From Phyllosticta citribraziliensis (Eukaryota): 64,000 nt of DNA. Positions 20,001-43,572 of this stretch are shown here, piece by piece; the first letter of the stretch is position 1; each line of letters begins with the position of its first letter. The stretch lies in contig NW_027117340.1 of assembly GCF_038025025.1 (NCBI RefSeq), positions 558,001 to 622,000 on the forward strand. Reading direction: 5' to 3'. The translations under genes were made by a program, and so were the position numbers. Below the pieces are notes generated by a model. The model saw nothing but the letters and a program-made list of their open reading frames with translations, searched no databases and was not told where the DNA came from.

Positions 20001-23000
20001 GGTTGGTCGGCCTCTTTTTTCCTTGCAAAGATGGAGGCCATGGCTGGTTGGTCGGTCGCTTGCTTCCTTGTGAGGCCTCGCGTCGCACCGAGGCACCACA
20101 CATTTGTCAAGATTGAGGACATGGCCTCCTTCCCGATACACAGACATGAACCGCCGGACGAGGTGGTGGGATCACCGAGGGCTTTTGACGCCAGCCATGA
20201 GTGGCTGTCCAGTCAATGGTCAGTTGGTCCGACGGTCGGCGGGTCGACTGACTGAATGCTCTCCCCTATTTGCGCCCGGCTCTCGGTCGAGGGGAACACC
20301 TGCTCCTCTTTGTGCAGTGCGATGGGTTGTGTGTAGTAGCAATGGTGGCAGTGCGTGCGTGTGTGCCGCAAGCCAGTCAGCCATTCAAGCGCCCGTCTGC
20401 TTGCTTGTTGCGCATCTCCACTGCAATGCCTCCCTCCTTACATGATGCCTCGGCAGGCCATCATATCCAGGGCCCTATCACCACGATCGGACTCGTCTCG
20501 CCCACATGGGCTACCTCAAGTCACCTGTCCGTCGCTTGCTGTGTGCCAACCGCCCCCCTCCTCGCCCACAGACGCAAGAAACGTCGGATCGCGCTCGACT
20601 AATTACCTACAACGCCTGTGCTCAACTTACATACATACCACCCTCCGACATGTTTGCATGCACGCCGGCCGACATGAAAGGACTGATACGCGATCGAAGA
20701 GCTGCCAGTGGTTGGCACGCTGCGCAACGCGAGTCGACGCGTGTTCCTGACTTGCGACACGCCTCGGTCCGCCCTGCCCTGCTCGCACTGTACCGTTCTG
20801 GTAACCCACGATGCCTAGGGCGTGCAGTGCTCACGGTCCTGGACAATGGGTATGTACGTATGTATGTGTATGCAGATGTAGATGTATACCACCCCACCAT
20901 CCCATCACCCTTCTTTCTCTCTCGTCGTATCCTTTGCCCCCTCTCCTTTTCTTCCTTTTCTTTTCTTCTCCTCGCTTCACCTTCTCTGCCCTTGCACTCT
21001 CTCTCCTTTCCTTGCCTAGTCTCTTCTTTTACTCCTCTTTCGTCCCTCCCACCTCTTGACTGCACCGGGTGCCTGCCATGCTATGCCCTGCGCCGCAACA
21101 CACAACCTACCAACCCATACACTTTTGCCGTCTTTCCGTTCCGGTGGCTGGCAAGCGCTTCCCCGCTGTACTTCTAGGAAGAGCTGTGAGGGACGTCGTC
21201 ATGTCGCAGCGTAGCGTCTTGTGGTGTGTCATGGTATGGCTTTGCTTGCTCCCCCTGTGTCTCGGTCCAGTAGATCATCTCTTGCTCTCATTGTCACTTT
21301 GAATGCTTCTTGGACGATATCCTTGCTCTCCCGTAATCCCGAATTCAGAATAGAGAACCAAGTTTCTGAATTCTCCCAAATGTCGCCCGAGCAAACACAC
21401 AACCCTACCTACCACAAGCCCCCTTTCTCGAACCCTTCCATTGCCGCCGCGCATCTGCACGCACTTGCGTCATGCGCACATACCCCCACTGATCGGAAGC
21501 GATGGACCGCCGGCCGGTCAGAGACTTCCTCGATCAATCTCGCTGCCGACCTCCTGCGTGACTGCCATGCTGCCGCACATACATGCGCGAGAGACGTAAG
21601 GGCAGAGCGGCACTCACTCACTCTATCGCCAATCCACCAGCCACCGCACCACCGCACCACCGCGCCAAAGAGTAGACGGGTAGATAAGGGATAGGTAAGG
21701 TAGGTATATAGAGCAAAGCGTTCGTGGATGGGTGTGTGGGTAGCATGGCAGGGTAGGTGGCGGAACGAGTCAATTGCACACACCACGCGCGCGCGAGCCA
21801 GCACCAGGCAAGCACCTTCCTATGTACGGACCATCGTCTCTGACGTCCCACGCTGCATGGCGCAACCTTTTTCTTCTTTTTTTTTTTCCTTCTTTTTTTT
21901 TCTTTTCGTCGTCGTCGCCATTGTCAACCGGTCGCTCACTGCTCTTGGCCCAGCCTCTCTTATTGCGCTGCCTCACTGGACCATACATTTACACACCACA
22001 TGCCCGCGCCTTACTGTACGTACGTACTGTGCGCCCACACACGCGCTCGCGCGCGCAGAGGCTACACGGCAGATGCGATCACCCCACTTGCTGTCCCGTT
22101 CGACTCGCTCAGTCAATTGGTAACTGGCCGAATGACTGGCTGAGTGGGTGGCCGTCCCAAGCCCCAATTCGAGTGATTGGCTGGGCCTGCTTTCTTTCTC
22201 CTCGTCCTACTCTGCCATTAGCTTAGGTAGCAGGTTAGTCAATCCGACTTACCCCTCTTCTCGTCCTCGTTTAGGTAGGTAGGTAGGTAGATATGTATGT
22301 TGGTGCATGGAGGGGTGGGCAATGCTATTGGCAATGCACCACCAAGGCATGTTGCTGGGCTTCTTCTCCGGTTGCTTACTGAATGCCTCGAGTTTTTCTT
22401 TTCTTTTCTTGTTCTGCTCACTTTTCCGTCTTCACGTCCACTTGCTTATCTGTCTTTCCCCTCCTTTTCTTTCTTTCTTTCGAATTGGACCAATGTGCGG
22501 ACGGACGGACGGACGGACACATCTCTTGATCTCGATCATACGGCCAACTGGTTGCCTAGTCAGCCAGCGGCGATTCTCCAATGCTTTGTCTCTTTGCCAT
22601 TATCCGGGCCCGGTTTTGCGTAGTTTCGCGCAGCGTGGCGTCGTGTGGCGCCCAGCACGAGGGAAGCAGTTCGTGAGGTAGGTGGTGGTGGTGGTGGTGT
22701 GGGCATTGTAAACGTCGAAGGAACCAATCGAACATCTTTTTTCTGGTTTCTCGTTGATCGCACTTGCTTTTTCTTACGTCGACTACGGTCGGTGGATGTC
22801 ATGTGGGTTTCGTTGATTTGAGGGTGGGTGATATTCGCTCTCGAGTGGATGGAGGCGACTTGAGCACTTGGAGCAGGAGCACGAGTAGCTTTGCCGATGG
22901 ATATCATTTCTGGTGGTGAAGTGGTTGTGGTGTGATGATGATCCAGCTTTTGACACTACCTTCTCGTACACTCTTGCTTGAAAGCGCGCCTCGTGCGCCT

Positions 23001-23042
23001 TCCTTTTTCTTCTCGGGTCTACTTGCTGGAGGCTATGTGGAA

Positions 23043-25241
23043 TCAAGAAAGAAAGCACTTCCGCACATGCATCCTCGCAACCTCATATCCAGTCTGGAAT
23101 TGCGTTGCCCCTGCTCTTCCCATATCCACCTCAATCTTCTCAAACAATCTCCGCTCAACACTGACAATGCCAGCCAGAGCCTTGCAATCTGCCTGCCCAA
23201 CCAAATCCGACTTGGCAACTGCATCGTGCAATTCGACAAACGCCTTGGCCATGCCCAAGAGCGACGCATGACTCTCAACCGGTCGCATCGACAAGTGCAG
23301 CATGTCGAGCGCAAACGCATTTGGCCACCGGTCGAGCACTTGCTTCAGCAGAGAAGGAGGCTTCGACAGGCCGTCTGGGACCCGCTGGAGGATGCGCAGG
23401 CCTATCTCGACGAGCCCGCAGTCGCCGTGCTTGCGTACCTCGTCCATGCCTGCCACTCCGTCCGCAATGCTGGCGAAACCGTAGTAGCTGCGCAGCAAAC
23501 GCACGATGGCGCAGGTTGTATCGTTGGCTGTGCGCGCCGGGATTGCAACAAAGTCTTCGAGGAGACTTACATGTGCGAACCACAGCGGAATGAGAGAAGA
23601 GAAGACGGGCCGCACTCCCGGAGAGACAGAAAGCTCGAGGTCCGTACTCGAGCCAGAGAGGTCGAATTGCCTCGCCTGAGCAAGGACAGGGTAGTCGACA
23701 CTGACATCCTCCAGCTTTGCAGTGACGGATGGGGCAGACGGCGCTACAAAAGAGAGATAGGCGTGCGAGCCGTACGTGCCCGCGTCGAGACTGTCAATCC
23801 ATTTGCGAACAACATCCATCTCGGCCACGGTGAAGGAGCCAAACATCTTGCCGCCCCAAGATAGCGCATGCATCAGACGGCTATTCTTGCTATCGCCCTT
23901 GCGCACCCATGGCTTCCAATTCGCCAGCTCCCGCAAGAATTCCTTTTGTCGCTGTTCGGATGCAAAGCTTTCGGGCGCCAGCCAGTCCGTCAACGTGCGT
24001 CCACCCACTTTGATCCGGCTACCGCAATGGATCTTGCCCGACGCTTGCGCTTTGCCTTGCATCATGGTGAGGAGCTCATGATTCCATTCATTTCGGAGGA
24101 GTGGCATTGTAGTCGTGGTGTTTGCGTCAGGGGGCGATCCCCCTAAGCCACTTGAAAGACAGTAACCCGCCTGGACACGCTTCCAAGCGCGTTGCATGGC
24201 TTCACGACCATCGATTTTGCCTATGTGGTCAAGGTATTTGACGACAATCTCCATGGCCATGGCCGTATGTCCCGAATGCGAGTTGTCGATGCTGATGTGC
24301 AGGAAAAAGTAGTACGGATCCAGCTTGACCTCGTCGAGCTCCTTGGCCGCCTTCATCGTGTCCAGCGTCAGCAGCTCAAAGTGCATGTTGTACCCCAGGA
24401 TCTCTGGCAAAAAGTCGTGCGGGAAGAGAGAAATGAGGAGCTGCGCCACTGCGGCCTTCCATGGCAAGAAACTGGCGTCGAGTCCGTGGCCGGGCTGAAT
24501 GAAGTCAGCCGAAGAGGCTTCCGGCAGACGCGCGCCGGCTTCTTCGAGAAGCTTCTTGTACAGGTGTACGTGGTGCTGCTCCAGATTTCCGTCGCCATAC
24601 TCCTCCGACATGACTTGCCATGCGCCCTTGGTGACGTGGCGGAGAGCAAACGGCGTCGTGACGCGGTGGATGTGTCCAAGCCATGCACCGTCGACCAGCT
24701 TCAGGGGAGCAACTCGCGCGAGCCAGTCTCGAGCTTCGTCCTTGGTACCAAAAAGCTCTCTTCGTCCTCCGCCCTTGCGGCGTGCAAGGTACGTTTCCCA
24801 TTCGTCTGCGACAATTACGTCTTGTTCCTGAAGGAACGTGCGTAGCTCTTCTTTGCTGTATCGTTCCAGGGACAGAATTGATCCTTCTACCCGATTTTTT
24901 TCTCCGCAGATTGTCTCAGAGAGCAGACAGATGAGTGTGTTTCTCGCCAGCGGCAAGACATCTGGAAACTCCTCAAGGTTCTGCACCTCGTGGTACAGTT
25001 TCTTGTATAGTCGCAACTGCTCGTATTCGGACGCCGAAGGTTCTCTTGAGCTCCACTTCAACACATCTGGGTCTTTAGACTCCTGTTGCTCATGAGTACT
25101 TCTCAACGCCGCTCGCCTAATCTTTGGGTTCTTGTAGAACCGGACTGATCGTGCGTATTTTAGGAAAATAGGGGTAGAGATGTATGCCGTGGCGTACCCC
25201 AAGCAGGCCGCAGTAATGATGAGTAATAGATTGCCGAACAT
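23043..25241 (-). CDS. Heme-oxygenase-like diiron oxidase (HDO / iron-containing redox enzyme family), ~732 aa, N-terminal hydrophobic anchor, apparently intronless
   Basis: First ATG is at 25241 (the ORF-track start is TTG). Candidate metal-ligand set: LVDGAWL, SEEYGDGNLEQHH (E-x9-H), MHFE, FLHISIDNSHSGH (H-x3-D-x2-H), the pattern of HDO enzymes such as the SznF central domain. N-terminus MFGNLLLIITAACLGYATAYI. Confidence 0.8.
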   Translation of the reverse strand: MFGNLLLIITAACLGYATAYISTPIFLKYARSVRFYKNPKIRRAALRSTHEQQESKDPDVLKWSSREPSASEYEQLRLYKKLYHEVQNLEEFPDVLPLARNTLICLLSETICGEKNRVEGSILSLERYSKEELRTFLQEQDVIVADEWETYLARRKGGGRRELFGTKDEARDWLARVAPLKLVDGAWLGHIHRVTTPFALRHVTKGAWQVMSEEYGDGNLEQHHVHLYKKLLEEAGARLPEASSADFIQPGHGLDASFLPWKAAVAQLLISLFPHDFLPEILGYNMHFELLTLDTMKAAKELDEVKLDPYYFFLHISIDNSHSGHTAMAMEIVVKYLDHIGKIDGREAMQRAWKRVQAGYCLSSGLGGSPPDANTTTTMPLLRNEWNHELLTMMQGKAQASGKIHCGSRIKVGGRTLTDWLAPESFASEQRQKEFLRELANWKPWVRKGDSKNSRLMHALSWGGKMFGSFTVAEMDVVRKWIDSLDAGTYGSHAYLSFVAPSAPSVTAKLEDVSVDYPVLAQARQFDLSGSSTDLELSVSPGVRPVFSSLIPLWFAHVSLLEDFVAIPARTANDTTCAIVRLLRSYYGFASIADGVAGMDEVRKHGDCGLVEIGLRILQRVPDGLSKPPSLLKQVLDRWPNAFALDMLHLSMRPVESHASLLGMAKAFVELHDAVAKSDLVGQADCKALAGIVSVERRLFEKIEVDMGRAGATQFQTGYEVARMHVRKCFLS

Positions 25242-26618
25242 GACGAACTTCCGCGCAAAAGAATGACAAAGGAGGCGAGGCAAGCAAGCCTGGGAAAAAC
25301 AAATATCAGCAACGACAATGCCAGAACGTAGTCTGAAGTGAACAGGACAACCGATCTCAACAAAATTAGCCCGCAGTCCTTGACTCAAGTAGTCTTTTCG
25401 AAGCCTAGATGACTCCCTTCACTCCTTCCTCTCCATCCCCGACCTCAACTGACCAGCCCACGACGTCTCGGCTCACCAAGCCAGCCCTCCGACCACCCTT
25501 CGAGCTCCGCCATTCCTCTGTGCTTACAGCGGCTGCCTGTTCATCCACTGCACTGCTCTCTGTCGCAATGTTCCCGCTTCAGCCGTACATGTCTCTGATG
25601 CTCCTCGGGGATACACGGTACGGTTGCAGATGCAGGGAAGGCGGACGGGCAGATGGAGGTAGTGCAGGCGATGAGCGCGGGCGGGCATTGAAGAGTGACA
25701 GGCAGGCAGTGAAGTATTCTCGACCTGTGATGCCTGACCTTTGTTGTCCTGCCATTTCGAGCATCGCTCGTTACTTGGTAAGAATGCAAAGGTAAGCTAC
25801 ATAGATAGTTTACAGAACTCACACGACGCATCAGCATGGGCGTGCTCACATACCATCTCGGCCGTTCCGTGGGGACTGCATGTCCATCGACAGCGGTAAG
25901 GGTCGCACACACATGTCTGAGCGCCAGGGCTGACTCGGGGGGCCAACTCGATCCCCTTCACGCACCTCCTGCCCCTATACCAAGAGAGGAAGGTCGGATC
26001 AGGTCCGCTGCGGAGGCATGGTAAGCTGCGAGGTGCCTGCGTCCAAGGCAGCAATCGGCGGGAAGGCAGATGGGCTCCTCCTGCAGAGGCGAGGTGGTGC
26101 GTGGACGGGCTGGACCGCACGTCGTCAGTGAAGGATTTCTGTCGTGACTTGCTGACTACGCGGATGGCTGAAAAGGGACAATGGTGTGCTTGCGAGGGCG
26201 AGTGGGTTTGGGGTTTGTTGCGCGGGTGGAAAGTGATTGCGAGCGTGGGAGGATTAGGGGTGGTGGTGATGGGCTGGGAAGTGGTGGACTACTGTTCGTA
26301 GGTAAGGGGAGTTAGTGTCGGTAATTTTAATGGGTGGTTTTGTCGAGAATGCTGCCATACAAACAAATGCATATGCCACCGAGACACTGATTTTACCAGA
26401 GTTCTGCTGGCACAGTGGATATCGAGAGAGATGATGCAATAGAGGACACTCCCTAAGCACAATCATGGCAGTAAACAACAGTTTTCCTAGCTTCATCTGT
26501 AGAAGTGAATGAATGCTCCCTAGACATACATAGCCACAGTACCACGAGTTATCGTTCTTTTGAAACCAAATGTAGCAATTCAAAAACAAAGAAATTCGCA
26601 ATCTCAGGGCAAGAATTC

Positions 26619-27956
26619 CTACAATCTGGCCTTGACCACGCCAATCTCCTCTGCCACCAACTGCCGCTTGCTCAACTCCACCACAGGCGCCGGCTTCTTG
26701 GGCACCATCGTCTCCAGCATCATCGGCCGGGGCTCCAAGTCAAGCAGAGCCTCCTCGACCAACGCAGCGACGTCACCCGCGCATCCAAACGACAACGACC
26801 ACCCCGCGCCGCCCTGGCCATAGCTGTGCACAATGCGGCTTGGTGCCGCGTCGCCCTCTCGCCGGCGCAGCTCGCGCTCCACGCGGACGTTGCGCTCGCG
26901 GAACGGCCGCAGACCCTGTGCGAGGGGGTAGTCGGGGTCGACGCGGGCGTGCTTTAGATCAGGGAGGAACGCCTCGCAGCGAGCACGCATGCGTCTGATA
27001 ATCGGCGAGTCGAGGGTGAGGTCGAGCTCATGCTGGTGGGACTCGGCGATGCCGCCAATGAGCAGTATATCGTCATTGCGCGGGACGAGGAAGACGATTT
27101 CATTCGAGTCGTGCACGGCGTCGGCAGTGATGGTCAGCGCGGCGTCAAGTTTGGGAAAGTCTTGTCCGTTGTTGACGACGCGGATGAGCCCGCCGCGGAT
27201 CGGGTAGCAGGACTTGTCGCCTGCGATTTCGGCGCCTGCGAGCCCCGTTGCGTTGATAATTACGTCGGCGGCGAACTCGGCGCGCAGAGCGTGCTCTTGA
27301 GCGAAGAGGTCGCCGTGAATGGTGCGTGTCGTGACCTTGGCGCCCTTGGAGACGACGAGGTCTTTGAGGAAGGCCATGCAGACATCGGTGTCGATGATCG
27401 GGGCGAGGTGTTCGTAAGCGTCGACAGCGCCGTAGTTTGCGTCGACGCGGCGCTCCTTGATGATGGATGCTCCCCGCCTGAAGCCACGGATGCCGCTGGC
27501 CATGATCTCGAGCATCTTGGACATTTGCTCGGCGTCTTGCTCGATGGGGACGGGGAAGAAGAAGTCTGCCCCCTTCATGCGGACCCCTGAGAGCTCCGAC
27601 AGTGACTTGGATGCTGCAATGGCATCCCAAATGTGATAGGCAACCATGCACCAGCGTTTGGAGTGTTGGAGAGAGATGGCATCGGTGTGCTGGCCGCAGA
27701 CGGCGGGAGGGAACTCCCAGAGAGCGCCCGCAATTTGGGATGTGAGGCGTTGCTTCTTGCCATAGGACGCCCACTCCTTGGCCAGAATGTTTACATGGTA
27801 TCCTTTGTCGAGAAGGGTCCAGGCGGTGATGAGTCCAGTGACTCCTCCTCCCACAATCAAGACTCTGGGAGAAGACGAGGTCGGCGTGTGTAGAGGGGTG
27901 GGAAAGGGAGTCAGGTCTCTCCAGAAGATCAAACTTTCACCCTGTGAAACAGCCAT
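26619..27956 (-). CDS. FAD-dependent D-amino-acid-oxidase-family oxidoreductase with a PTS1 (-ARL), intronless
   Basis: Rossmann motif VLIVGGGVTG, plus TSQIAGALW, IINATGL, YPIRG, GLRPFR and HSYGQGGAGWSLSFG (DAO C-terminal signature). Ends ...VKARL*. Confidence 0.88.
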   Translation of the reverse strand: MAVSQGESLIFWRDLTPFPTPLHTPTSSSPRVLIVGGGVTGLITAWTLLDKGYHVNILAKEWASYGKKQRLTSQIAGALWEFPPAVCGQHTDAISLQHSKRWCMVAYHIWDAIAASKSLSELSGVRMKGADFFFPVPIEQDAEQMSKMLEIMASGIRGFRRGASIIKERRVDANYGAVDAYEHLAPIIDTDVCMAFLKDLVVSKGAKVTTRTIHGDLFAQEHALRAEFAADVIINATGLAGAEIAGDKSCYPIRGGLIRVVNNGQDFPKLDAALTITADAVHDSNEIVFLVPRNDDILLIGGIAESHQHELDLTLDSPIIRRMRARCEAFLPDLKHARVDPDYPLAQGLRPFRERNVRVERELRRREGDAAPSRIVHSYGQGGAGWSLSFGCAGDVAALVEEALLDLEPRPMMLETMVPKKPAPVVELSKRQLVAEEIGVVKARL

Positions 27957-28938
27957 TGTAGGGTACCGAATTGAAGATGAATGTGATTTGAGACAAGAAG
28001 ACAACAGTGTAGTCTGGGTTTACAACAAAACATCAGTCTCCAACCAGTTCAAAGACATTCAAGCGTTTATGTACTTACAGCCCCTTCTCTGCTAATAACG
28101 CAACTCTGGCTGGATTTTCATCACGACGAGGGCCAAATGTGCCGATTCTGTGGCTTGGGACTGTTGAATGTTCCATGTAGCCCAATCCTTCCGACACTGG
28201 AGACGTGTCGCTGACACCTCCGCCATGGCGACGATGCATGACAGAGGACTGGGGGCCGAGCCGGAGTGTAGAGGACCATTTGCAGAAGCCCGGGTCGGCG
28301 GTGTAGTGGTAGCCTAGAAGCCCTGGTCGAATTTCTGTTGGTTTGGTAAATTGTCTCCTCGCGAGGGAGCGGAATCCAAACCACACGAGGGACACAGTCA
28401 TCACTGCGTCGCTCGACGGCTTTCTGTCCCACCAGTCTCATCGCTAGCGTCGACGGTGCGGAGAAAAAGCAAGGAGTCGAGAGGCGGAGTGCCATGTAAT
28501 GGTAGCAGTAGGAGTGGTTGAACGCATCCTGCGGAGAATCGACTAGTCAAAAAAGTCTTAGGTCTGGCCTTGTCTGCCCTAAGACCTGCCAAATTAAGCT
28601 TGTTTGCACCGTGCAGCTCGAAGGACGTTGGAGCAGGGTGTCTCGCGGGCCGCACGATCCGCCCCGCCTTGGCGGATCAGTTCCCCAAACAGACAGGAGG
28701 AGCATCTGCCGACTAAAGGGTGCTCGTAACGCTCGGCAATTTCAGAGATGCAGCTTATCTCAGTTGGCCCCTTCCAAAACCCCTGCGCACATCGTTTGCC
28801 GGACGTGACTCAAGCTTCCTGTCCTGGGCTAGCGTCAGCACGCCGGACCCATGACCGGTAAATATCGTTTGTTTGGCGCGTCCTTGTGCTGTCCAGCGCT
28901 CCCTCTCTGCACGTTTCTCGATTCCTCCCCTCTGCCTC

Positions 28939-30329
28939 ATGGCGAGCCCTTGCCCCGAGCCTGGCCTGCCAACGCCGACTTTGCGCCAAAGTGAGGAGAA
29001 GGCCGAGAATGGACTCATCAGTGCAGACAACGACGCCGAATCAGCAGAGGTCGACGTCAATTCCGCCTCACTCCCACCTCCCCCTCCAGATGGCGGCGTC
29101 CAGGCGTGGACCCAAGTCTTGATGGGACATTTGGTCCTGATCAACGGATGGGGCTATCTCAGTTCCTTCGGGCTCTTCCAGTCGTACTACACGACTTCTT
29201 TGGGCGCTTCACCCTCGGCCATTAGCTGGATCGGCTCCCTCCAAATCTTTCTCGTCTACCTTGTCGGCACCTTTTCCGGCAGAGCTCTTGATGCCGGCTA
29301 TTTCCATGTCGTCCTTGGCCTTGGGTCGTTCTTGCAAATTTTGGGAGTCTTCATGACGTCCGTTTCATCGCAGTACTGGCAGCTTCTCCTCGCCCAGGGA
29401 GTATGCAAGGGACTTGGTGATGGCTTGGTATTTTGTCCCACAGTCTCTCTAGTGGCAACGTACTTCTCCAAGAAGCGCTCGTTGGCCATGGCCTGCACTG
29501 CGTCCGGAGGTGCCACCGGTGGCATAATCTTTCCCGTCATTGCCCAGCAGCTGCTTCCCAAGATCGGCTTCGGTTGGACTGTGAGAATCATGGGGTTTGT
29601 CATCCTCTTCAACGCTTTCGTCGTGCTCTTGATTGCGCGCGTCCGACTTCCACCCAGAAAGACGGGACCTCTGGTCGAGTGGAGCGCATTCAAGGAGCCT
29701 TCTTACACGCTGTTCTGCGTCGGCATGTTCTTCAATCTTTGGGCAGTCTACTTTGCCTACTTTTATGTGAGTCTGCTCCTTCAAGGCGTACAACCAGCAT
29801 CTGATGGCATTCGCAGGTCAGCACGTTCGGCAAGAAGATCATCGGTGTCTCTTCTTCGACTTCGTTGACGATTCTCCTGGTGATGAATGCGGTCGGAGTT
29901 CCCGGGCGGCTGGTCTGCGGCCTCACGGCGGACCGGCTGCTTGGGCCGGTCAACACGCTCATTCCAGTGGCATTTTTTGCCGGAGTCTTGTTCTACTGCT
30001 GGGCAGCCGTGTCTTCGCTGGGAGCCCTTTTTGCTTTTTGCATCCTTTACGGATTTTTTGGAGCCGGCATTCAAAGTCTCTTTCCCGCATCCTGCGCCAG
30101 CTTGACGACGGATCTCAAAAAGATGGGAGTGCGGACAGGCATGTGCTTTTCGGTCGTATCGATTGCGTGCTTGACGGGTCCGCCAATAGCTGGAGCGCTG
30201 ATCCAGCAGCACAATGGCGGATTCCTGTATGCACAAATGTTTGGAGGGTCAGCATTCATGGGCGGCACGTTGACGCTGGTCGCAGCCAGACTCGCCAAAA
30301 GTGGACTGGAGCTCAAGAGCAGGATGTAA
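28939..30329 (+). CDS. MFS transporter, monocarboxylate porter (MCT/Mch) family
   Basis: PPPDGGVQAW N-terminal motif, GYLSSFGLFQSYY, SWIGSLQ, YFSKKRSLA; intron 29767-29816; many hydrophobic helices. Confidence 0.9.
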
Positions 30330-30724: not shown

Positions 30725-31510
30725 ATGGCTGACACCGCCTACACCAAAGAGACGCGCAACACCGTCCGCCGCCATCGCGAGCGCGGCCAGTATGACTTTG
30801 CGACGGTCCACTCGATTGTCAACCAGGCCTCGATCCTGCACGTCTCCTTCCTCCCTACAGACCCTTTGGAGGATCCCTTTCCAACCATCCTCCCCATGAT
30901 TGGTTCCGTGGGCCTCTTCTCCAACCCTGACAACGATCCTGGCGCCCAACCGCTTGACCTCTATATCCATGGCCACAGCGCCTCGCGTTTGATGCGTCTA
31001 CCCACGGCGCAGGGCTTGGAACAGGTCCCCGTCTGCGTCGCTGCCACTATGCTCGACGGCATCAAGCTGGCTCTTACGCCCTTCAACCACAGTTGCAACT
31101 ACCGCAGCGCTGTGCTCCATGGCTACGCGTCGATCGTGACAGACGAGGCAGAAAAGAGCTGGGCCCTGGCACTCATCACCGACGGCCTCGTGCCCGACCG
31201 TTGGGATAATTCGCGTGTCCCACCCACCAAGGCTGAAATGACGAGCACGACGGTGCTAAAAGTTTCCGTCGTCAGCGCCAGCGCCAAGGTCAATTCCGGC
31301 GAGCCCGGCGACGACCGCAAGGACCTCAAGGACGACGCAGTCACGTCATCTGTGTGGACCGGAGTCCTGCCTGTCCATGAGCAGATTGGCGCTCCGCAGC
31401 CCAGCTCCACTAACAAGGTCGCCAAAGTGCCGCAGTATCTGGATCAGTGGTGGCAGGCAGAAAACACCAAGCGCGAGACATATGCCCACGATGCCTCTCG
31501 GCCAAAATAG
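30725..31510 (+). CDS. Split-barrel flavin-nucleotide-binding protein (pyridoxamine 5'-phosphate oxidase-like / NimA-like)
   Basis: 261 aa intronless ORF: NTVRRHRERGQYD, ILHVSF, LYIHGHSASRLM, VCVAATMLDG, HSCNYRSAVLHG, SAKVNSGEPGDD, VWTGVLP. Confidence 0.85.
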   Translation: MADTAYTKETRNTVRRHRERGQYDFATVHSIVNQASILHVSFLPTDPLEDPFPTILPMIGSVGLFSNPDNDPGAQPLDLYIHGHSASRLMRLPTAQGLEQVPVCVAATMLDGIKLALTPFNHSCNYRSAVLHGYASIVTDEAEKSWALALITDGLVPDRWDNSRVPPTKAEMTSTTVLKVSVVSASAKVNSGEPGDDRKDLKDDAVTSSVWTGVLPVHEQIGAPQPSSTNKVAKVPQYLDQWWQAENTKRETYAHDASRPK

Positions 31511-31790: not shown

Positions 31791-33067
31791 CTAGTTTCCG
31801 TCCGGATATGCTAGCCTATCAACCTCCTGCCATTCCTTACTCTGCGCATAGATGCTGCGAATGGGCGACAACAACCGATTGAAAGCTTCAATCGTGGCCT
31901 CCTTCAAGTCTTCGGGACTCACTTCATCTTTCACAAACGCCTCTTCCAACTCTTCATACGAGGAAAAATGCTTCGGCGCTTCTTCACCAAATACCGTCCA
32001 CGCCGTGCCACTCGGCGCGTCTTTTGCACAAAATGGCCTCTGATTGCTATTCACTTCCTTGCCTTCGGCCGTATATAGTCCAGTCTGTCCAGCAAGCCGT
32101 TCCACACGCTGCACGCTAATGGGCAGGAGGACGTCGCGCACAAGGCCCAGCACGCCATTATGCTCAACCTGGGCAGCGGGGCAGGCTGCGGCGTCAATCT
32201 TGGCGCGAACGACGTGCGGAGCGTCGAGAAACTCAATTTTGGTGGCGGCCGGCTTGGAAGACGACATTTTGAGCCCGTCCAGTCCGGCAACCATTGTGTT
32301 CATGAGGTGCTCGCGCTGGCGGTATCCGAGGGCGGGGATGAAGTGTTTGGCGTGCTCGAAGAGGCCGGTCTGCGGGGTCTGTCAGTGTCCGACTTTGCAC
32401 GGGACGGGAGGAAAAGACACACCTGATCGATGCCGCCATACTGGACATCCAAATCCAAGTACACCTCGCTCAAGCTTTGGTGCACGGCACACAGCATCGG
32501 ACTCAGCATCTTCGTCTCGGCAACCTCATCGCTCGTATCCCTCGCATCCTTTTGCGTCATGAGCGCACAAAGGCGCTGAGTATCCACCACAAAATCCTTC
32601 TGATACGCAATGCTGCTCTCGGCAATGAAATTGACGTGCGCAGGCGGGACCCCCAGCGCCGCCAGGATCGCGCGTACGAGGAAATCGTAGTAGCGCTGCC
32701 GGTGCGCGACGGTTTCCATGCTGTGCACGTAGTTGACGAGGAAGCCGTACACGTCGAGGTAGTAGACTGTCACGTCGAGCCCGGCGCGCAGGAAGTCGAT
32801 CAGTTTGGCTAGGGGCACAAAGTAGCCAACGTGCGCTGTGAGAGCCGCATGGCATTGGTTAGCCAACCTGGTTGATTTTGCTTCGGATTGGATGGCGGAA
32901 GGGGACCTACGCTTTCCTGTCGGCGTGGTCTCCCACGCCAGCTTCAACGGTGTCTGGCCTTCTGCTTCTCGCCGGGCCAGCAGCGTGCGGAGTGAATCAC
33001 GGTCAGCATCGCTCAAGAAGGCCTGCTGGCGTGTAATGAGGTTGAATTTCTCCTCGGTGGGCAGCAT
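31791..33067 (-). CDS. Tyrosyl-tRNA-synthetase-like protein (class Ic, eukaryotic type), divergent amino-acid pocket, ~382 aa
   Basis: ATG 33067; introns 32910-32836 (in frame) and 32422-32370. The spliced product has TGKPHVGY (HIGH motif), YLDLDVQYGGIDQ, HLMNTMVAGLDGLKMSSS (KMSKS motif) and an anticodon-domain-like C-terminus ending AYP. Confidence 0.88.
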
Positions 33068-34606
33068 CGTAACTGGATTGGTAAGAAGACGAAGATGCAA
33101 AACGATCAATGTCTAGACGAAGCCGAGGTGAACTTGACAAGTACAGTGCTTCAGAAGACCGGAGCGGAGAGGATGGCTGGTCCTTTTACATAACTGCTAC
33201 TTATTGGACGCGCTTCTTATACACGTCCGGGTGTTCTTTGGAGCAGTTGACCGTTGAATAGCGTTGAGGACCAATGCCGCGCTGCTGGCGACCGTCTCCG
33301 GGCCTTGGAGCTTCAGCCCTCATCCCTCCACCTTTCCGCACTTGATCGCACAAGCGCAGCAGCAGCATCCTCCTTCCTTCTGCCTCCTCATCGACCAAAA
33401 GTCGCTACATGGGCGGCTTCAACCAAGCTGCATGGCTCTTTACCGTCTTTTACGCTTATTTTACGATGCACACGTAACCGTTCTGTACTGTACAGGTTGC
33501 CGGACCTAGCTCCTCGCCATCTCGCTCCCTGTCTTGCTCTACGGCAGCTGTGCTACGTCCCATTCCGGTGTGCGTTCAATGTTGCCGACGCAGCTGTCAG
33601 TCAGTCAGATCTCTTCCACGTATCAACTCCTCGTAGGGGGCGGACGGCATGAGGGGGCCAAATCCTTCGTTCCTAAATGTTGCATACCATTACGCAGCTG
33701 GGCGGAGCAAATCAGGAGATTATTTGCCGGGTGATTGTCTAAATGGATGGCGTGCGCGGTCATGGTTTGCGAAGAATAGAATCGGACAACAAGAAATGTG
33801 TTTGTGTGGTTACCGTGGCTGACGCAGGGACTGCACTGCACGACTTGCGGAGGAACAGTCAGTCATGCATACAGGCAGCCAGACGCCACGGTAGGTGTGA
33901 AAGTACGAACGCTCCTTGGGCATTTGATTGGATGGACTCCCGCACGACCGTACGTCTTGTCTCACTCTTCCCCGCGGAAGGAATCGAAGAAGGAAGGCGA
34001 AAACTCTGCAGCACCTGCGGGTGGCGCCGGCGCGGCGTTAAGAGAGCGATGCAAAGAGGCAGGTGGTGTTGATGGCAAGATTCGGCCCCCAAGTCGCACG
34101 ATGCGTGGTCCGTCGGCGGACGTGGCCGAGACATACGGGACTTGCGGAGAAGAGCGAGAGATGTTGACGCAGTGAGTGTGATTTGAGGCATGCGGTGAGC
34201 ATCTAGATCCTGTGGTCATGTCCGCTTGTCACTTTGTGGGGATTGTTGCGACGTGCTTGCTGACTGGCTAAAAGGTTGATTACCTGCAGGGTACATGTTC
34301 CTACACGCTGAGTATGCCAGCATCTAATTTTCGAAGCCCAAAGACTTGATGCACTGTACATGCATGCTGTACATACTCCACCTCTTGAGGAACGACCAGC
34401 CCCTTCTACATGCCTGACTGGCTTAGCCGTAGGTGACGAGAAGGATGCCTTCTCACTCTCGGGGCATCTCTCCATTTTGAACTGCCGAGGGTGGTGTGTC
34501 TTGGCTTTCTCTGACGGCAAAGGCTGATCTATCACTTCGTCTCTTGCGCGCTTTCACTGGCGTTTGGACTTGTTGGAGAAAGGAAGTTCGCAAGTCTCCC
34601 ATCAAG

Positions 34607-36437
34607 ATGGGGACTTTTCCAACTCTGGGTGAAGCGCCCAAGAGTCTGACTGGAAGCATTCACAAGATGCCACAGAAAGGGGGCAGCGTGGCCGCGGAGG
34701 CAGACGCAATCGCAGTGATTGGCGAGAAGAATACCGATGTTGAAGAGGCCCAGCTGGAAGAGCCGCCCAAGAAACTTCATCTGCCCTTGGTATTGACGTT
34801 AGCCGGTGCAGCCTTTCTGAATGTGAGCCATGTCTCCTGATCAATGAGCTTTTCCGCTAAATGCTCCCTCCAGACGCTGTCGGTGCAATCCGCCGTTATC
34901 ATCCTCCCCAGCATCGCTCGAGACATTGGCATCCCCTCGGAGCGCCAACAATGGATCATCTCAGCCTACTACCTGACGTTTGGCTGTTTTTTGCTAGTGT
35001 GGGGCCGGCTTGCCGACATCTTCGGACGACGCCTCATCTTCATCTGGGGCTCGGCCTGGGTAACGGCTGTGACCGTCGTCGTGCCTTTCGCGCCAAACGA
35101 AATCGTCTTCGACGTCTTCCGCGGCTTGCAAGGGCTCGGCGCTGCTGCCAATGTCCCGACAGCCATTGGCATCCTAGGCGCGACGTTTTCGCCAGGCAAG
35201 ACCAAGAACTACGCGTTTGCGATTTACTCGGCCGGCTCTTCGTGCGGGTCTGTTTTGGGCAACATCTTCAGTGGCATCATCGGCCAGTGGCTGTCGTGGA
35301 AGTGGATCTTTTGGGTGCTGGCCATCATGGCTGGCTTGGTCACGGTGCTCGGCCACTTTCTTGTCCCACTCGAGTCCAAGGTCGAAGATGAGGAGGCCGC
35401 CGCCAGGCCCGTTGTGCACGTCGACTGGATTGGCGGCACACTCATCTCGAGCGGGCTCATGCTGCTCAATTTTGCATTGACGCAGGGCAACGTTGTGGGA
35501 TGGGGCACGTTCTGGATCCCCGTCCTGATTGTCTGTGCAGTGCTGATTGTAGGCGTGTTCGTCTTGTGGCAGTGGTATCTGGAGAACAAGACGTCTAGAG
35601 CGCCCCTGATGCGCGTGTCCATCTTCCACAACACGCGCTTCAATGCTGCGCAGGTCATTATGGCCATGTTCTTTGCCGCGTTCAATAATTATCTCGTCTA
35701 CGCCACTTACTTGTAAGCTCCCTCCCCCAAATCGTGGTGGATGTCAAAAAGAGGGCACCATTCCGCTAGAACGCCTCGCTCGCACCTCACCGCAGTGGCA
35801 GCTCCTGGCCAGGGCGTGACACTTCTTTGGTACCTGCCGTGAAATTATTATACTGACGTACAATGCGCACAGTTACCAAGACTATCTCGGCCTCAACGCC
35901 ATCCAAACTGCGCTGCGCTTCATCCCGACCGGGATCATGGGATTCGTAGGCAACTTCATCGCGGCTAAGCTGCTCTCGCGCGTCCGCGGGACCTACCTCC
36001 TTATCTTCAGCTCAGCATGCGTGGCACTTTCTTGCCTCCTCAATGCCGTGCCCATTCCACCCAGCACGTCGTATTGGGCCTACGGCTTCCCTGCCATGGT
36101 TGTCTCAACCCTTGGCGCCGACATCTTGCACCCAACCCTCACCCTCTTCACCGCGCAGTCCCTGCCGCCTGCCGATCAAGCCCTGGGCGGCGCGCTCATA
36201 ACATCGGTCCTCCAGATCGGCCGTGCCATCGGGCTCGCAGTCGCTACCGTTGTTCAGACGTCTGTGGCGCGCGATGAGGGCGGCGCTTCAGGCAGCGAGG
36301 AGGTCGCGGGGTCGGCGGCGCTGCTCGACGGCATCAGGGCAGGCCAATGGTTCAATTTCGGATTAGCTGTTGGTGCGTGTGCAGTCGCAGTCATTTTCTT
36401 CAACAGCAAGGAAAAGGTCGGCGCGGTGAAGAGGTGA
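34607..36437 (+). CDS. MFS drug:H+ antiporter (DHA2-like) efflux transporter
   Basis: Introns 34823-34873 and 35713-35872; motifs WGRLADIFGRR, RGLQGLGAA, WKWIFW, DWIGG. The start could instead be the ATG at 34667. Confidence 0.88.
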
Positions 36438-37559
36438 GGATGGATGATTCGGTCTGCCGTTTTGCAAGTGTTGCATGGACTTTCTTGGCCGACTGGCAAC
36501 GCGGGACGGCCCGAGCCGCCTGGTATGTCGATCCTTGGACGTTGCAGGGTTTCTTGGAGCATTCTTCTCCTCGGAGTCTCCTTTCTATATTTTGCATTCG
36601 CAATTTTCTTCATTCACACATTCCACGCAGTTTAAAAGATAATGCATCTTGTGGAGAAAAGTCCTGAGAAGCGCACCGGAACCTCGAAATCCAGAAGCCA
36701 TTGCAGTGGTCAGGCATGATAGGACAGAAACCCATCGGTGTCAAACAGGAGTCTCAGCCCGCAATGCCCTTTGTTTCTCTCAAAGCAGCAGTCCTGGTCT
36801 CTCAGTGACGAAATATCTGGCCCCGGTTGCCCTGCCAGCTTCAACACGCTCGTGCTCGAGTTAGGCAGGTGAACACACGTCAAATTGCGCTTTCCAGGGT
36901 TCGACAACGTACCTTGCACAGGGCTATTCTCGGTGCTGCCTGTATTCGAAGGACGTATTCTAAAATCTGACACGAATCTGTCAACTAGGCCTAGATGCAT
37001 GCAAGTCTCGGAAGAGGTGGTGTTCGAGGCTGGTAGTCTTTGCGTGCGTGCACAGGCAAAAGACGCGATATTGCAATTGTTCGCTCGGCTGGATGCTTTT
37101 TTTGCCGGCAGTGCAACTAAATGGGGGCTAATAGGAGTTGACAGGCTGACTACTGACATGCATGCATGTATGTATGCAGACTGACACACGGACGACCGAC
37201 GACGTCCCTGCACGAATCCTTCCACATTACACCTGCCTGTTCCTTTAGGCCAAGAAAGAAGCATTGTGGCTGCAAGGGGCTTATGGACCCTGGTCTTCCA
37301 GGAAGTGTGGGGTGCATCATCGGGTCAGCACGAAGGATTCACCGACAGGAGACAATCTGACAGTCACTGACAGGCAAAAATCACGACAGATGGGAATTGC
37401 TAACACAAATTACAGTCATTGGTGGATCTGACCTCCATCTTCGCGTGCCATTTTCCTTGATGAGAAAAAGGGAAAGACTGTTTTGTGATTTGCTGCCTGC
37501 ATGCTGACAATTGAGTAGGTAAGAAAGTATTGCAATGCCGCACATTACCACGGGCATCA

Positions 37560-38597
37560 TCACGCTTGAATGCTCCCTTCGCGCTGCACCGCTGCTGCCG
37601 CCGCAGAATCCTCCCTCGCCCACTGCTCCTTGAGCTGGTGCATCGGCCGCAAAAAATACGACAAGTAGTACCTCTTTCTTTTTCCATCCTCATGCTGCGT
37701 AACGCGATGCAGGGGCGAGTGAAAAACGCCCTTACTCAAGCGCTGCAGCGAATCCGCCACATTGACAAGTGCACAGCCAGGTTTGGGCGCGGCGTAGGCC
37801 CAGCGCTGCGTCGACGGGAGGAATACGTGCAGCCCCCACTCGGTGTAGAAGAGCAGCGTGAAGGTGCCGCTGTCGGTGTGCTTGTTCTCAACGACGTCGG
37901 CGGCCTGCGCAACTGTCGGCTCGTAGATGAGCTTGAGCCCGGTGTCGCTGGTGAAGGCATGCGAATGGTGGCCAAGGACGATGTCGGGATCGTAGGAGGG
38001 GTGGACTTCTTGGGCCAGCGAGTGGAAGAGGCTGCCGAGCAGAGACAGGCTGGCGATGTGGCAGACTTCGTTGAAGCGCTTGATCAGCTCTGTCTTGTCG
38101 GCGATGGAGGTGGGGAGTTCAATAAATCCGCCGCGGAGGAGCTCGTCGTCCGCCATCTGTGGGCGGTTTAGTATGTCAATTTGCAGCTGTCAGGGAGTAG
38201 GTAGGAAGATTTGGATCTTCATACTTCGAATGTCTCGTCATTCTCGCTCTTCTTGTACCTGTCCACACGCAAGAGTCAGTGGTGAATGGCGCTTGCGGTG
38301 CACTGGAAAAATAGGACGAAATTCACTTGCATACCCGCGGTCCTGCGACGGCAGCTGGTCCGTTCTTACGTCTTTCTCCTTCTCCGCGGCAGACTGCGCA
38401 AAGTAGCGGTCTGAAAGGGCGTACATCTGATCCAAAGCATCCAAGACACCCTCTCTGTAGTTGGAAAAATCAAGGTGAAAAATCCCCGGCGACTGGGCAG
38501 CCTCAAAGAGCTTGCGCTGCTCGGCGGCGTCGCGGTTCAGGATCTTGAGAATATCGATAGTGGCAAGAGCCGCGACGTCGGTGGGTTGATCTGTCAT
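37560..38597 (-). CDS. 2-oxoglutarate/Fe(II)-dependent oxygenase (IPNS/DIOX family)
   Basis: Exons 38597-38335, 38258-38225 and 38156-37560 keep the frame. N-terminal LATIDI..GIFHL (DIOX_N-like); facial triad HTD...H (HTDSGTFTLLF, SPLHRVT); RYYLSYFLRP. Confidence 0.88.
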
Positions 38598-43483: not shown

Positions 43484-43572
43484 TCTTCGATGGTCTAGTG
43501 GTGATGATTTCCGCTTGTCATTACAGCGTAGTGCAAGCGCGGGAGACCGGGGTTCGATTCCCCGTCGGAGAG
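43484..43572 (+). tRNA. tRNA-Asp(GTC) with a 17-nt intron
   Basis: Acceptor stem TCTTCGA/TCGGAGA with discriminator G, D-arm TGGTCTAGTGG, anticodon GTC at 43517-43519, intron 43521-43537, T-arm CGGGGTTCGATTCCCCG. Confidence 0.93.

Follow-up and report, generated by a model that had tools for sequence, protein, structure and literature searches.

Paralogues of aminoacyl-tRNA synthetases with roles in secondary metabolism are known from bacteria, where they comprise MetRS-like hydrazine synthetases, VlmL and resistance copies. Bacterial hydrazine-synthetase cassettes also carry a FAD oxidase resembling D-amino-acid oxidase (DAO). The MetRS-like domains O-acylate N-hydroxylamines produced by N-hydroxylating monooxygenases (PMC13755311, in its available part), the chemistry consisting of formation of an aminoacyl-AMP and subsequent O-acylation of a hydroxylamine (excerpts of PMC13755311 and PMC12376268). 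In the VlmL/VlmA system of valanimycin and in the fungal ErdS protein (AspRS-DUF2156), a dedicated synthetase paralogue was recruited to supply the aminoacyl group that is passed to an acceptor outside ribosomal synthesis (for ErdS, excerpts of PMC9437257). According to the same excerpts, synthetase duplicates are known in antibiotic clusters, e.g., the indolmycin-resistant TrpRS and the mupirocin-resistant IleRS, in which an extra synthetase gene is tied to secondary metabolism, and TrpRS II of Deinococcus is an auxiliary class Ic synthetase linked with the nitrogen-oxide chemistry of an aromatic amino acid. A search of the open-access literature, PMC6941272 included, found no account of a TyrRS-like enzyme with a biosynthetic role in fungi, nor of a fungal occurrence of the family of heme-oxygenase-like diiron enzymes (HDO) that accompanies the one described here.

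The window (the whole stretch of 64,000 nucleotides of Phyllosticta citribraziliensis that was analysed) contains a gene for a TyrRS-like protein on the minus strand at 31791-33067, with its ATG at 33067-33065 and its TAG at 31793-31791. Exon 1 (32911-33067) encodes residues 1-52 and the first base of codon 53, including the motif AWETTPTG with A44 (32938-32936); exon 2 (32423-32835) encodes residues 53-190, including HVGY (32833-32822), C168 (32491-32489), Q172, S175 (32470-32468) and Q190; exon 3 (31791-32369) encodes residues 191-382 and the stop codon, including T191 at the site of yeast R193, KMSSS (32270-32256), the C-terminal domain and D344 (31910-31908). Intron 1 (32836-32910, 75 nt, GTAGGT...CAG) and intron 2 (32370-32422, 53 nt, GTGTGT...CAG) are skipped exactly in RNA contigs from three of four runs (X1, X2 and X3, from three studies), in which the exon 1 boundary is also seen; splicing therefore does occur at these sites, and the gene is expressed. 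The fourth run (X5) gave just two 151-nt contigs on the window, and contig depth in these runs is no basis for ranking expression. The spliced coding sequence of 1149 nt specifies 382 amino acids with a single terminal stop, and the product is identical at 372 of 382 positions (97.4%) to a protein of the same length from Phyllosticta citrichinensis (P0001). The frame and splice sites, which a sequence-only reading had described as intact, are so; all the motifs that it quoted were found (AWETTPTG, HVGY, MLCAVHQSLSEVYL, GGIDQ/TGLF spanning intron 2, and KMSSS), and the TyrRS consensus strings that it gave are consistent with human and yeast TyrRS as they stand in the alignment.

Both the class Ic catalytic domain and the TyrRS fold are present. 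Pfam PF00579 matches exons 2 and 3 (E 9e-10 and 1.5e-11), and a sequence search of PDB with P0001 retrieved yeast TyrRS (2DLC, E 3e-64) and human TyrRS (E about 1e-61), both much too strong to be chance matches, while an ESM Atlas search returned generic 'Tyrosine--tRNA ligase' clusters only. The predicted structure of P0001, which served as a stand-in for the window protein, is confident (pLDDT 90.2, pTM 0.90), its top Foldseek match is again 2DLC (E 1.1e-29, TM 0.81/0.91), and the TyrRS fold covers all 382 residues of the TyrRS-like protein. This protein falls in the same length class as the cytosolic TyrRS of yeast and human (2DLC, 1N3L/1Q11) and shares their fold (32-34% identity, with TM 0.79-0.81 on the query), their HIGH and KMSSS motifs, the glutamines that contact the alpha-amino and carbonyl groups, and the C-terminal domain; it differs from them in lacking Y43, D177, Y170, R193 and R151, and in being encoded within a cluster of oxidase genes.

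These residues were mapped by pairwise alignment with yeast TyrRS, using the list of contacts in the available part of PMC1934993. The two readers of the tyrosine hydroxyl are replaced (yeast Y43 by A44 and D177, which that source describes as universal, by S175), and of the triad that holds the alpha-ammonium group, Tyr170 is replaced by C168 and the other two are kept (Gln174 as Q172 and Gln192 as Q190). The sequence-only reading had claimed just such a loss of the Tyr and Asp at the phenolic hydroxyl and of the Tyr at the alpha-amine, together with retention of HIGH (as HVGY) and KMSSS; its claims are confirmed by the alignment, and the structure model that it called for best matches 2DLC. 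Judged by these motifs, the TyrRS-like enzyme can probably still use ATP. Many M. jannaschii TyrRS variants engineered for non-canonical amino acids are among the sequence and fold matches in PDB, and most such variants carry substitutions at Y32 and D158, i.e., at the two positions that are altered in the window protein; unlike them, the window protein is natural, is conserved across fungi and has lost tRNA readers as well. In yeast TyrRS, the Y43G substitution illustrates how a smaller residue at Y43 opens room for substituted tyrosines (excerpts of PMC1934993). The pocket of the window protein would be enlarged at the former para-hydroxyl site, and its substrate may therefore be bulkier than tyrosine or differently substituted.

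Recognition of tRNA-Tyr appears to be altered in parallel. The available part of PMC1934993 attributes the reading of C1 and A73 in yeast to Arg193, that of G72 to Arg151, and that of the anticodon base G34 to stacking by Phe296 together with Asp321. In the window protein, the acceptor-stem identity readers are replaced (R193 by T191 and R151 by D152, as well as K194 by G192) and the G34-reading Asp is kept as D344; in alignment A1, nothing corresponds to the aromatic-Gly-Gly motif seen in canonical rows, and HMMER left this stretch unaligned in the comparison with solved structures. The C-terminal domain, of the anticodon-binding type, is retained and well conserved, and its presence along with that of D344 leaves room for some tRNA binding.

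In a phylogenetic tree of 56 rows, the 29 TyrRS-like ones all fall into a single clade (SH-aLRT 100), nested in a clade (support 99) with canonical TyrRS of the basidiomycete type; by this phylogeny, the gene belongs to a filamentous-ascomycete clade of single origin. Site by site, 14 non-redundant clade members were compared with 160 canonical sequences, 'canonical' being defined by Y43, Y170 and D177, so that the universality of these three residues among the 160 holds by definition. In the clade, the Y43 site is occupied by Ala in eleven members, Thr in two and Val in one, the D177 site by Ser in eleven, Gly in two and Ala in one, and the Y170 site by Cys in 13 of 14; Q172 and Q190 are found in all 14, and the HIGH His and the KMSSS Lys in 13. 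The R193 site is basic in two of 14 members (Arg in 152 of 160 canonical sequences), the R151 site in none (Lys, Arg or His in 155 of 160), and Asp is present at the D321 site in five (131 of 160). Residues D80, Y82, N87, Y88 and H90 of a remodelled motif do not vary among 12 sequences, and L345, K346, Y364, W370, A377, Y378 and P379 in the C-terminal domain are likewise unchanged in 12 of 12.

These patterns bear on self-resistance, in which the cluster would make an inhibitor of TyrRS and the paralogue would be an insensitive TyrRS that sustains translation. The precedents in antibiotic clusters mentioned above, the two exporters encoded nearby, and the intact ATP motifs and overall fold are what such a copy would lead one to expect. 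However, resistance duplicates keep recognition of their cognate amino acid and tRNA, and the window protein, to judge from its residues, does not: both readers of the tyrosine hydroxyl are missing, including the Asp called universal, and so are Arg193 and Arg151. The sequence-only reading had counted the loss of the tyrosine readers against a resistance copy, and the additional loss of the tRNA-Tyr readers bears it out; as the identity readers are gone and just five of the 14 members of the clade have the G34-reading Asp, the protein is very unlikely to be a resistant TyrRS. Also against it are the pocket residues of the clade, which are not minimally modified but conserved in a new state, the diversification of the family, with its many types of pocket and its fusions to GNAT, and the existence of HDO and PNPOx-like gene pairs alongside which no TyrRS-like gene was seen.

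The TyrRS-like gene lies tail-to-tail with a plus-strand gene (30725-31510) for a PNPOx-like flavoprotein of 261 residues (Pyridox_ox_2, NimA/Anf3-like; Pfam E 1.8e-29), whose nearest solved structure is 6RK0 (E 9e-27) and whose relatives bear names such as 'NimA-like' in their source records. A predicted complex between the two proteins scored 0.00 against a mark of 0.34, which counts neither for nor against binding. Beyond the flavoprotein gene are a plus-strand gene for an MFS transporter of about 446 residues by Pfam (28939-30329, an approximate model with an intron at 29767-29816 joined in RNA contigs), a minus-strand gene for a FAD enzyme of the D-amino-acid-oxidase family (26619-27956, about 445 residues from the first ATG; Pfam DAO E 6.5e-30, and E 2e-15 to 1e-12 against solved D-amino-acid oxidases), upstream of which an intron at 28014-28078 is spliced out, the joint being seen in RNA contigs, and the HDO gene. 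On the other side are a plus-strand gene for a second, TRI12-like MFS transporter of about 539 residues by Pfam (34607-36437, introns 34823-34873 and 35713-35872) and a minus-strand gene for a 2OG-Fe(II) oxygenase of about 297 residues (37560-38597, Pfam DIOX_N and 2OG-FeII_Oxy, introns 38157-38224 and 38256-38331), both of them approximate models with joints in RNA contigs. The 2OG oxygenase has only generic relatives in PDB (best E 7e-10), and a 42%-identical copy adjoins the TyrRS-like gene of metagenome locus L041. This separate 2OG gene of the cluster encodes a protein of the double-stranded beta-helix type. Within the window, the cluster includes neither a PKS nor an NRPS.

Gene neighbourhoods in other genomes, read from runs of accessions, place the TyrRS-like gene beside genes for HDO and the NimA/Anf3-like flavoprotein in three classes of ascomycetes. 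HDO and PNPOx-like genes accompany the TyrRS-like gene in the window and also in seven other genomes and five loci from metagenomes, and the PNPOx-like gene adjoins the TyrRS-like gene in six other genomes (five named species) and two metagenome loci. The gene order of P. citrichinensis is that of the window; Penicillium cosmopolitanum has HDO, TyrRS-like and PNPOx-like genes consecutively, Naviculisporaceae sp. and two Rhypophila have TyrRS-like, PNPOx-like and HDO genes consecutively, and the PNPOx-like and TyrRS-like genes are neighbours in Clathrospora. Among metagenome loci, L005 and L007 have the TyrRS-like gene tail-to-tail with the PNPOx-like gene, L001 has an HDO gene at a distance of 7.4 kb, and L041 contains genes for a 2OG oxygenase, the TyrRS-like protein, a SidA-like N-monooxygenase, the PNPOx-like protein and DAO. 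At E 8e-95, the SidA-like protein of L041 closely matches housekeeping SidA, and it was seen at this single locus, where it may be a chance neighbour; it was set aside as a part of the system, and a tblastn search of the window for a lysine/ornithine N-monooxygenase, with this protein as query, gave no match. Separate contigs carry the listed HDO homologue and the TyrRS-like gene in Arthrobotrys musiformis, A. megalospora and Geoglossum simile. In Ptychographa and P. roqueforti, HDO and PNPOx-like genes form a pair beside which no TyrRS-like gene was seen, indicating that the TyrRS-like enzyme is accessory to the pair and not its core.

A further possibility is that the protein is a non-catalytic or decaying duplicate, i.e., a pseudoenzyme, scaffold or regulator that neighbours the oxidase genes by chance. 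Many recognition residues are gone, and a catalytic function is a prediction. Even so, the open frame, spliced transcripts and 97% identity between two Phyllosticta species, the ATP motifs in 13 of 14 clade members, the confident predicted fold and the synteny maintained over three classes all argue against decay, which is accordingly given even less credence than self-resistance.

The favoured reading, and a fairly likely one, is that the TyrRS-like protein is a neofunctionalised descendant of fungal cytosolic TyrRS that would act outside translation as a class I ATP-dependent adenylate-forming enzyme within a small conserved biosynthetic cluster. The sequence-only reading had proposed an adenylating enzyme for a substrate other than tyrosine rather than the housekeeping TyrRS; with the tyrosine pocket lost, the tRNA readers lost or unconstrained in the clade, the trio of genes conserved and the new pocket residues fixed, that direction fits and is strengthened, and its biochemical part stands as a prediction. 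The enzyme would activate an amino acid other than tyrosine, and the acyl-adenylate would be handed not to tRNA-Tyr but, in all likelihood, to a small molecule that the neighbouring oxidases generate; most likely, then, the enzyme helps to make a small molecule.

The neighbour that may indicate which chemistry is involved is HDO (PF14518, Pfam E 4e-33), encoded on the minus strand at 23043-25244 as a protein of 733 residues with a predicted N-terminal helix and a C-terminal half that is assigned to no domain, 90% identical to P0105. RNA contigs of run X1 do not cover this gene (bins 22500-25703). HDO N-oxygenases have the ligand pattern E-x9-H, E, HxxxDxxH (PMC13133933), and the putative metal ligands of the window protein are E215, H225, E281, H316, D320 and H323, spaced as in RohS and SznF. 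Among 20 homologues, five of the six ligand columns do not vary at all; the column of the third His has Asp in 15, His in four and Ala in one, with an invariant His nearby. As a single sequence, HDO has no relatives among solved structures, a profile of the 20 sequences retrieved none that is credible (best E 0.079, the unrelated NDUFA5), and its model gave no Foldseek match at E <= 0.001. VIA-align superimposed the model on RohS with Z 21.6, on HrmI with 20.1-20.4 and on SznF with 17.3-19.7, compared with 10.8-12.9 for CADD, BesC, PolF, PqqC and UndA. RohS and SznF are marked by a seventh carboxylate on an auxiliary helix (E98 and E189, respectively); in the corresponding region of HDO, where pLDDT is below 50, a Trp is located 26 residues before the first Glu and an invariant Asp 30 residues before it. 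By its model, HDO is nearest in fold to the N-oxygenases RohS, HrmI and SznF, and it may be considered a candidate N-oxygenase.

The most specific guess, purely by analogy, is that HDO would N-oxygenate an amine and that the resulting hydroxylamine, or an intermediate related to it, would be aminoacylated by the TyrRS-like enzyme, a logic found in bacteria with the MetRS-like/cupin hydrazine synthetases and, for valanimycin, with VlmL/VlmA; processing of the product would fall to the NimA-like, DAO-like and 2OG enzymes, and its export to the MFS pumps. The TyrRS-like enzyme could then be the adenylating half of a fungal system that follows, with a derivative of TyrRS, the scheme of the bacterial hydrazine synthetases, in which a membrane-anchored HDO N-oxygenates the amine and O-aminoacylation of the hydroxylamine proceeds without tRNA to give an N-N or N-O bonded metabolite; in this full form, the proposal is decidedly unlikely. 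What the two systems would share is an adenylating domain derived from a class I synthetase and encoded beside an N-oxygenating enzyme (in the window, the candidate HDO). Unlike the bacterial cupin/MetRS-like proteins, the window protein is eukaryotic, is derived from TyrRS rather than MetRS and has no fused zinc cupin, and the candidate N-oxygenase is HDO instead of a flavin monooxygenase (of which L041 has a SidA-like one). No partner that would transfer the acyl group to an acceptor was identified in the cluster, nor is a cupin fused to the TyrRS-like protein.

Two features have no prior description in the searchable literature or go beyond the tyrosine pocket: a conserved derivative of a eukaryote-type TyrRS linked to a diiron N-oxygenase-like enzyme in fungi, and the loss of tRNA-Tyr identity readers. 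If the protein is an adenylating ligase, it marks a class of fungal clusters without PKS or NRPS, expected to escape standard finders that seek such genes, and these could be mined by a signature in which Y170 is replaced by Cys and both Y43 and D177 by small residues, and Arg193 is absent. Such a ligase would also represent natural remodelling of the positions that are mutated in genetic-code expansion, offering ready scaffolds with altered specificity, and might lead to N-oxygenated or N-N bonded fungal metabolites. Should the comparison with hydrazine synthetases hold, this would be the first eukaryotic machinery of its kind derived from an aminoacyl-tRNA synthetase, and a TyrRS pocket would have evolved in nature to accept a non-canonical substrate.

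An acyl transfer that does involve tRNA is rather unlikely, and would require the TyrRS-like enzyme to load a non-tyrosine amino acid onto tRNA-Tyr (through other contacts) or onto a different tRNA, feeding a transferase as in VlmL/VlmA or ErdS; ErdS uses Asp-tRNA from its own AspRS domain (available part of PMC9437257). Retention of the full-length architecture including the C-terminal domain, where many residues do not differ between any of 12 sequences, and the presence of D344 are consistent with such a route. The synthetases of the VlmL/VlmA and ErdS systems, like TrpRS II of Deinococcus (bacterial, TrpRS-derived and still active on tRNA-Trp), truly charge tRNA, whereas the window protein lacks the tRNA-Tyr readers, and those of C1-G72, A73 and G34 are lost or variable over the clade. 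No dedicated tRNA was found in the cluster by ARAGORN and Rfam, the sole tRNA of the window being Asp(GTC)-like and 10 kb off (43484-43572). A GNAT or other transferase was sought with Pfam among the 130 window orfs of at least 140 amino acids, as well as among 127 orf pieces of 60-139 amino acids (19.7-43.4 kb, mostly outside the seven genes), and none was found in either set. In contrast, relatives of the window protein do resemble the VlmL/VlmA and ErdS systems in this respect: two more distant TyrRS-like proteins, of Drechslerella stenobrocha (DRE_00504) and Phlyctema vagabunda, carry a fused GNAT domain (Acetyltransf_3), and DRE_00504 is only two locus tags from an HDO (DRE_00506). The wider TyrRS-like family thus shows several pocket types along with GNAT fusions, which suggest a whole unexplored family of enzymes.

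The TyrRS-like gene occupies 31791-33067 on the minus strand, from an ATG at 33067 to a TAG at 31793-31791, and is interrupted by two short introns, both bounded by GT..AG and carrying motifs that resemble fungal branch points. Spliced by coordinates, it yields 1149 nt and a 382-aa product that matches P0001, a 382-aa protein of Phyllosticta citrichinensis, at 372/382 positions. Three runs, drawn from three studies, have contigs in which precisely 32370-32422 and 32836-32910 are missing; therefore these runs derive from RNA, the gene is transcribed and its splice sites, which the sequence-only reading had called intact, are used. Another splice-like joint (33594-33687, minus-strand), present only in run X2, lies upstream of the ATG and may be a 5′-UTR intron, which would fit a longer 407-aa database model (P0225).

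Every TyrRS-like motif quoted in the sequence-only reading is present, and the contrast that it drew with the eukaryotic TyrRS consensus agrees with HMMER alignments to the yeast and human enzymes. Residue roles were taken from the contacts in PMC1934993 and mapped onto the TyrRS-like protein by HMMER alignment. Among the yeast contacts described there, the tyrosine OH is met by Tyr43 and Asp177, the alpha-ammonium and carbonyl by Tyr170, Gln174 and Gln192, C1 and A73 of tRNA-Tyr by Arg193, G72 by Arg151, and G34 by Phe296, Pro320 and Asp321 (PMC1934993). The mapping reproduces the proposed changes in the tyrosine pocket (Tyr43 to A44, Asp177 to S175, Tyr170 to C168), while Gln174 and Gln192 are kept as Q172 and Q190. 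In the motif GGIDQTGLF, the arginine by which the yeast enzyme reads the acceptor end of tRNA-Tyr is also missing, a loss that had gone unmentioned: Arg193 is T191 and Lys194 is G192. Arg151 is replaced by D152, and Asp321 is kept as D344. A resistant TyrRS, the alternative raised earlier, is very unlikely, because recognition of tyrosine and of tRNA-Tyr are both dismantled.

The same sites were surveyed in a family alignment of 230 members of 280-1000 aa (from 257 gathered), and tabulated for 14 non-redundant members of the gene's clade, a further 14 divergent paralogues and 160 canonical sequences. Because a sequence counted as canonical if it had Y43, Y170 and D177, these three columns, but no others, are circular. 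The R193 site is basic in 2/14 clade members, compared with R in 152/160 canonical sequences; the R151 site is basic in none of the 14, compared with K/R/H in 155/160; and D is found at the D321 site in 5/14, compared with 131/160. The HIGH histidine and the KMSSS lysine are present in 13/14 clade members, Q172 and Q190 in all 14, and a cysteine at the Y170 site in 13; a remodelled strand motif (D80, Y82, N87, Y88, H90) is invariant in 12/12 sequences. As judged from sequence, the clade pattern is one of a conserved ATP site, a conserved putative new pocket and apparently decayed recognition of tRNA-Tyr. The AlphaFold model of P0001 is confident (pLDDT 90.2) and superposes over its whole length on yeast and human TyrRS, so the TyrRS-like protein is neither truncated nor degenerate. 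The protein is probably a non-translational biosynthetic enzyme that would adenylate a substrate other than tyrosine and pass it to an acceptor other than tRNA-Tyr, within the cluster.

When 1.84 billion representatives were scanned in full with HMMER, 1156 relatives reached E <= 0.001 and 161 reached E <= 1e-30, the best including other non-canonical fungal lineages (Geoglossum, Drepanopeziza, Hirsutella, Xylona, Sclerotinia SS1G_07965 and a second Rhypophila copy). Two relatives, P0385 of Drechslerella stenobrocha (DRE_00504, 632 aa) and P0367 of Phlyctema vagabunda (610 aa), join the TyrRS-like domain to a C-terminal GNAT (Acetyltransf_3); DRE_00504 is two locus tags from DRE_00506, a homologue of the window's heme-oxygenase-like diiron enzyme (HDO). 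These fusions, with the retained C-terminal domain and D344, are what a tRNA-dependent variant of the enzyme would have in its favor, an unlikely but tenable reading; in valanimycin biosynthesis, the SerRS paralogue VlmL works with the transferase VlmA. In a quick IQ-TREE phylogeny (56 rows, 369 columns, no named filamentous-ascomycete canonical TyrRS among the rows), every one of the 29 TyrRS-like rows falls into a single clade (SH-aLRT 100), itself nested in a wider clade (99) that also holds five canonical rows of basidiomycete type. The nesting of this single clade suggests that the fungal cytosolic TyrRS was duplicated once, long ago, and that the copy then diversified. Within the gene's own subclade, Dothideomycetes, Eurotiomycetes and Sordariomycetes are intermixed against the species tree, from which cluster genes often depart.

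Pfam searches of all window ORFs of at least 140 aa placed the TyrRS-like gene among those for HDO (PF14518, 23043-25244, minus), a D-amino-acid-oxidase (DAO) family protein (26619-27956, minus), an MFS transporter (28939-30329, plus), a Pyridox_ox_2 (PNPOx-like) flavoprotein (30725-31510, plus), a second MFS transporter (34607-36437, plus) and a 2OG oxygenase (37560-38597, minus). RNA contigs confirm the introns of five cluster genes; four cluster gene models are approximate. Run X2 alone has two other splice-like joints, at 36839-36912 (minus-strand, between the second MFS gene and the 2OG gene) and 24231-24306 (plus-strand GT..AG, antisense inside the HDO gene).

The arrangement around the TyrRS-like gene is conserved. 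In named genomes, as inferred from accession runs, Penicillium cosmopolitanum has HDO (..131), TyrRS-like (..132) and PNPOx-like (..133) genes; trios in the order TyrRS-like, PNPOx-like, HDO occur in a Naviculisporaceae sp. (..845, ..846, ..847) and in two Rhypophila (R. decipiens ..119, ..120, ..121; a second Rhypophila ..813, ..814, ..815); Clathrospora elynae has PNPOx-like (..424) and TyrRS-like (..425) genes; and Phyllosticta citrichinensis (..386, ..387, ..390) has the gene order of the window. Expression and conservation both argue against an inert duplicate, which is most improbable. A scan of metagenome contigs added five fungal loci with the paralogue signature. In L005 and L007 the TyrRS-like gene is tail-to-tail with a PNPOx-like gene that shares 67% identity with that of the window, in L001 an HDO gene is 7.4 kb away, and L004 shows no neighbours because its contig is only 1.3 kb. 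L041 carries 2OG, TyrRS-like, SidA-like N-monooxygenase and PNPOx-like genes and the beginning of a DAO gene. The SidA-like gene (12210-13817, plus) sits between those for the TyrRS-like and PNPOx-like proteins and encodes an ornithine N5-monooxygenase closely resembling Aspergillus SidA (E 8e-95); it is either a siderophore gene placed there by chance or an N-hydroxylase gene recruited to the set. L005, a low-GC (39%) contig, has a hAT-transposase dimerisation-domain remnant (5800-6177, plus) 1.3 kb from its gene pair.

Two Arthrobotrys species and Geoglossum have the TyrRS-like gene on one contig and the listed HDO homologue on another. HDO adjoins the PNPOx-like gene in Ptychographa (P0127/P0296) and Penicillium roqueforti (P0131/P0358), with no TyrRS-like gene seen. 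Both families (709 HDO matches at E <= 1e-5, 741 PNPOx-like at E <= 1e-10) have more than 700 fungal relatives, many in lichen fungi, and greatly exceed the TyrRS-like clade in size. In our reading, the pair forms a widely distributed core, which the TyrRS-like gene joined as an accessory in a subset; even by itself, the combination of HDO and NimA-like flavoprotein looks like an uncharacterised two-gene module that is widespread.

HDO has all six metal ligands (E215, H225 ten residues on, E281 56 further, H316-x3-D320-x2-H323) spaced as PMC13133933 describes for RohS and SznF. The model of a homologue (P0105) is mediocre overall (pLDDT 71), and its HDO domain aligns best with three N-oxygenases, RohS (Z 21.6, rmsd 2.8 Å, 252 residues), HrmI (Z 20.1-20.4) and SznF (Z 17.3-19.7), followed by FlcD (Z 15.3-15.5) and by CADD, BesC, PolF, PqqC and UndA (Z 10.8-12.9). 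RohS is described as oxidising 2-aminoimidazole to the nitroimidazole azomycin, HrmI as N-oxygenating lysine and SznF as N-hydroxylating methylarginine. Residues about 543-715 of the model, in the unassigned C-terminal half, have weak four-helix, ferritin-like matches only (Z 6.2-6.4), and two Orbilia oligospora homologues (P0215, P0217; 935-947 aa) carry a fused aminotransferase domain of class I/II (PF00155). The PNPOx-like neighbour bears source names such as "NimA-like nitroimidazole reductase", and its best solved relative is 6RK0, which is tied to the Anf3 oxidase paper PMC6579470.

Fold similarity does not establish function, yet the N-oxygenase-like diiron enzyme, Nim-like redox protein, DAO-like oxidase and 2OG oxygenase read like a set for chemistry on the oxidation state of nitrogen. 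Bacterial enzymes derived from aminoacyl-tRNA synthetases take part in chemistry of just this kind, among them the hydrazine synthetases, whose cassettes also carry a DAO-like FAD oxidase. For hydrazine synthetases, PMC13755311 describes an N-hydroxylating monooxygenase that makes a hydroxylamine and a MetRS-like domain that adenylates an amino acid and O-acylates the hydroxylamine, with the N-N bond formed afterwards by a cupin. By analogy, the TyrRS-like enzyme might O-acylate a hydroxylamine, a rather improbable specific case.

Past about 46 kb, the genes of the window look like housekeeping genes. The plus strand carries a tRNA gene at 43484-43572 that scores 46.3 bits against Rfam tRNA. 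Its anticodon context is GTC, and the anticodon loop is followed by a 19-nt insertion; ARAGORN mistakenly calls a 4-base anticodon here. The gene is probably an intron-bearing tRNA-Asp and, 10 kb off the cluster, probably unrelated to it. Three long open frames of 354-489 aa (15027-16496, minus; 16207-17271, minus; 18419-19825, plus) have no Pfam match; the region, at 15-20 kb, is strongly skewed in strand composition (between 16 and 18 kb the AT skew is -0.24).
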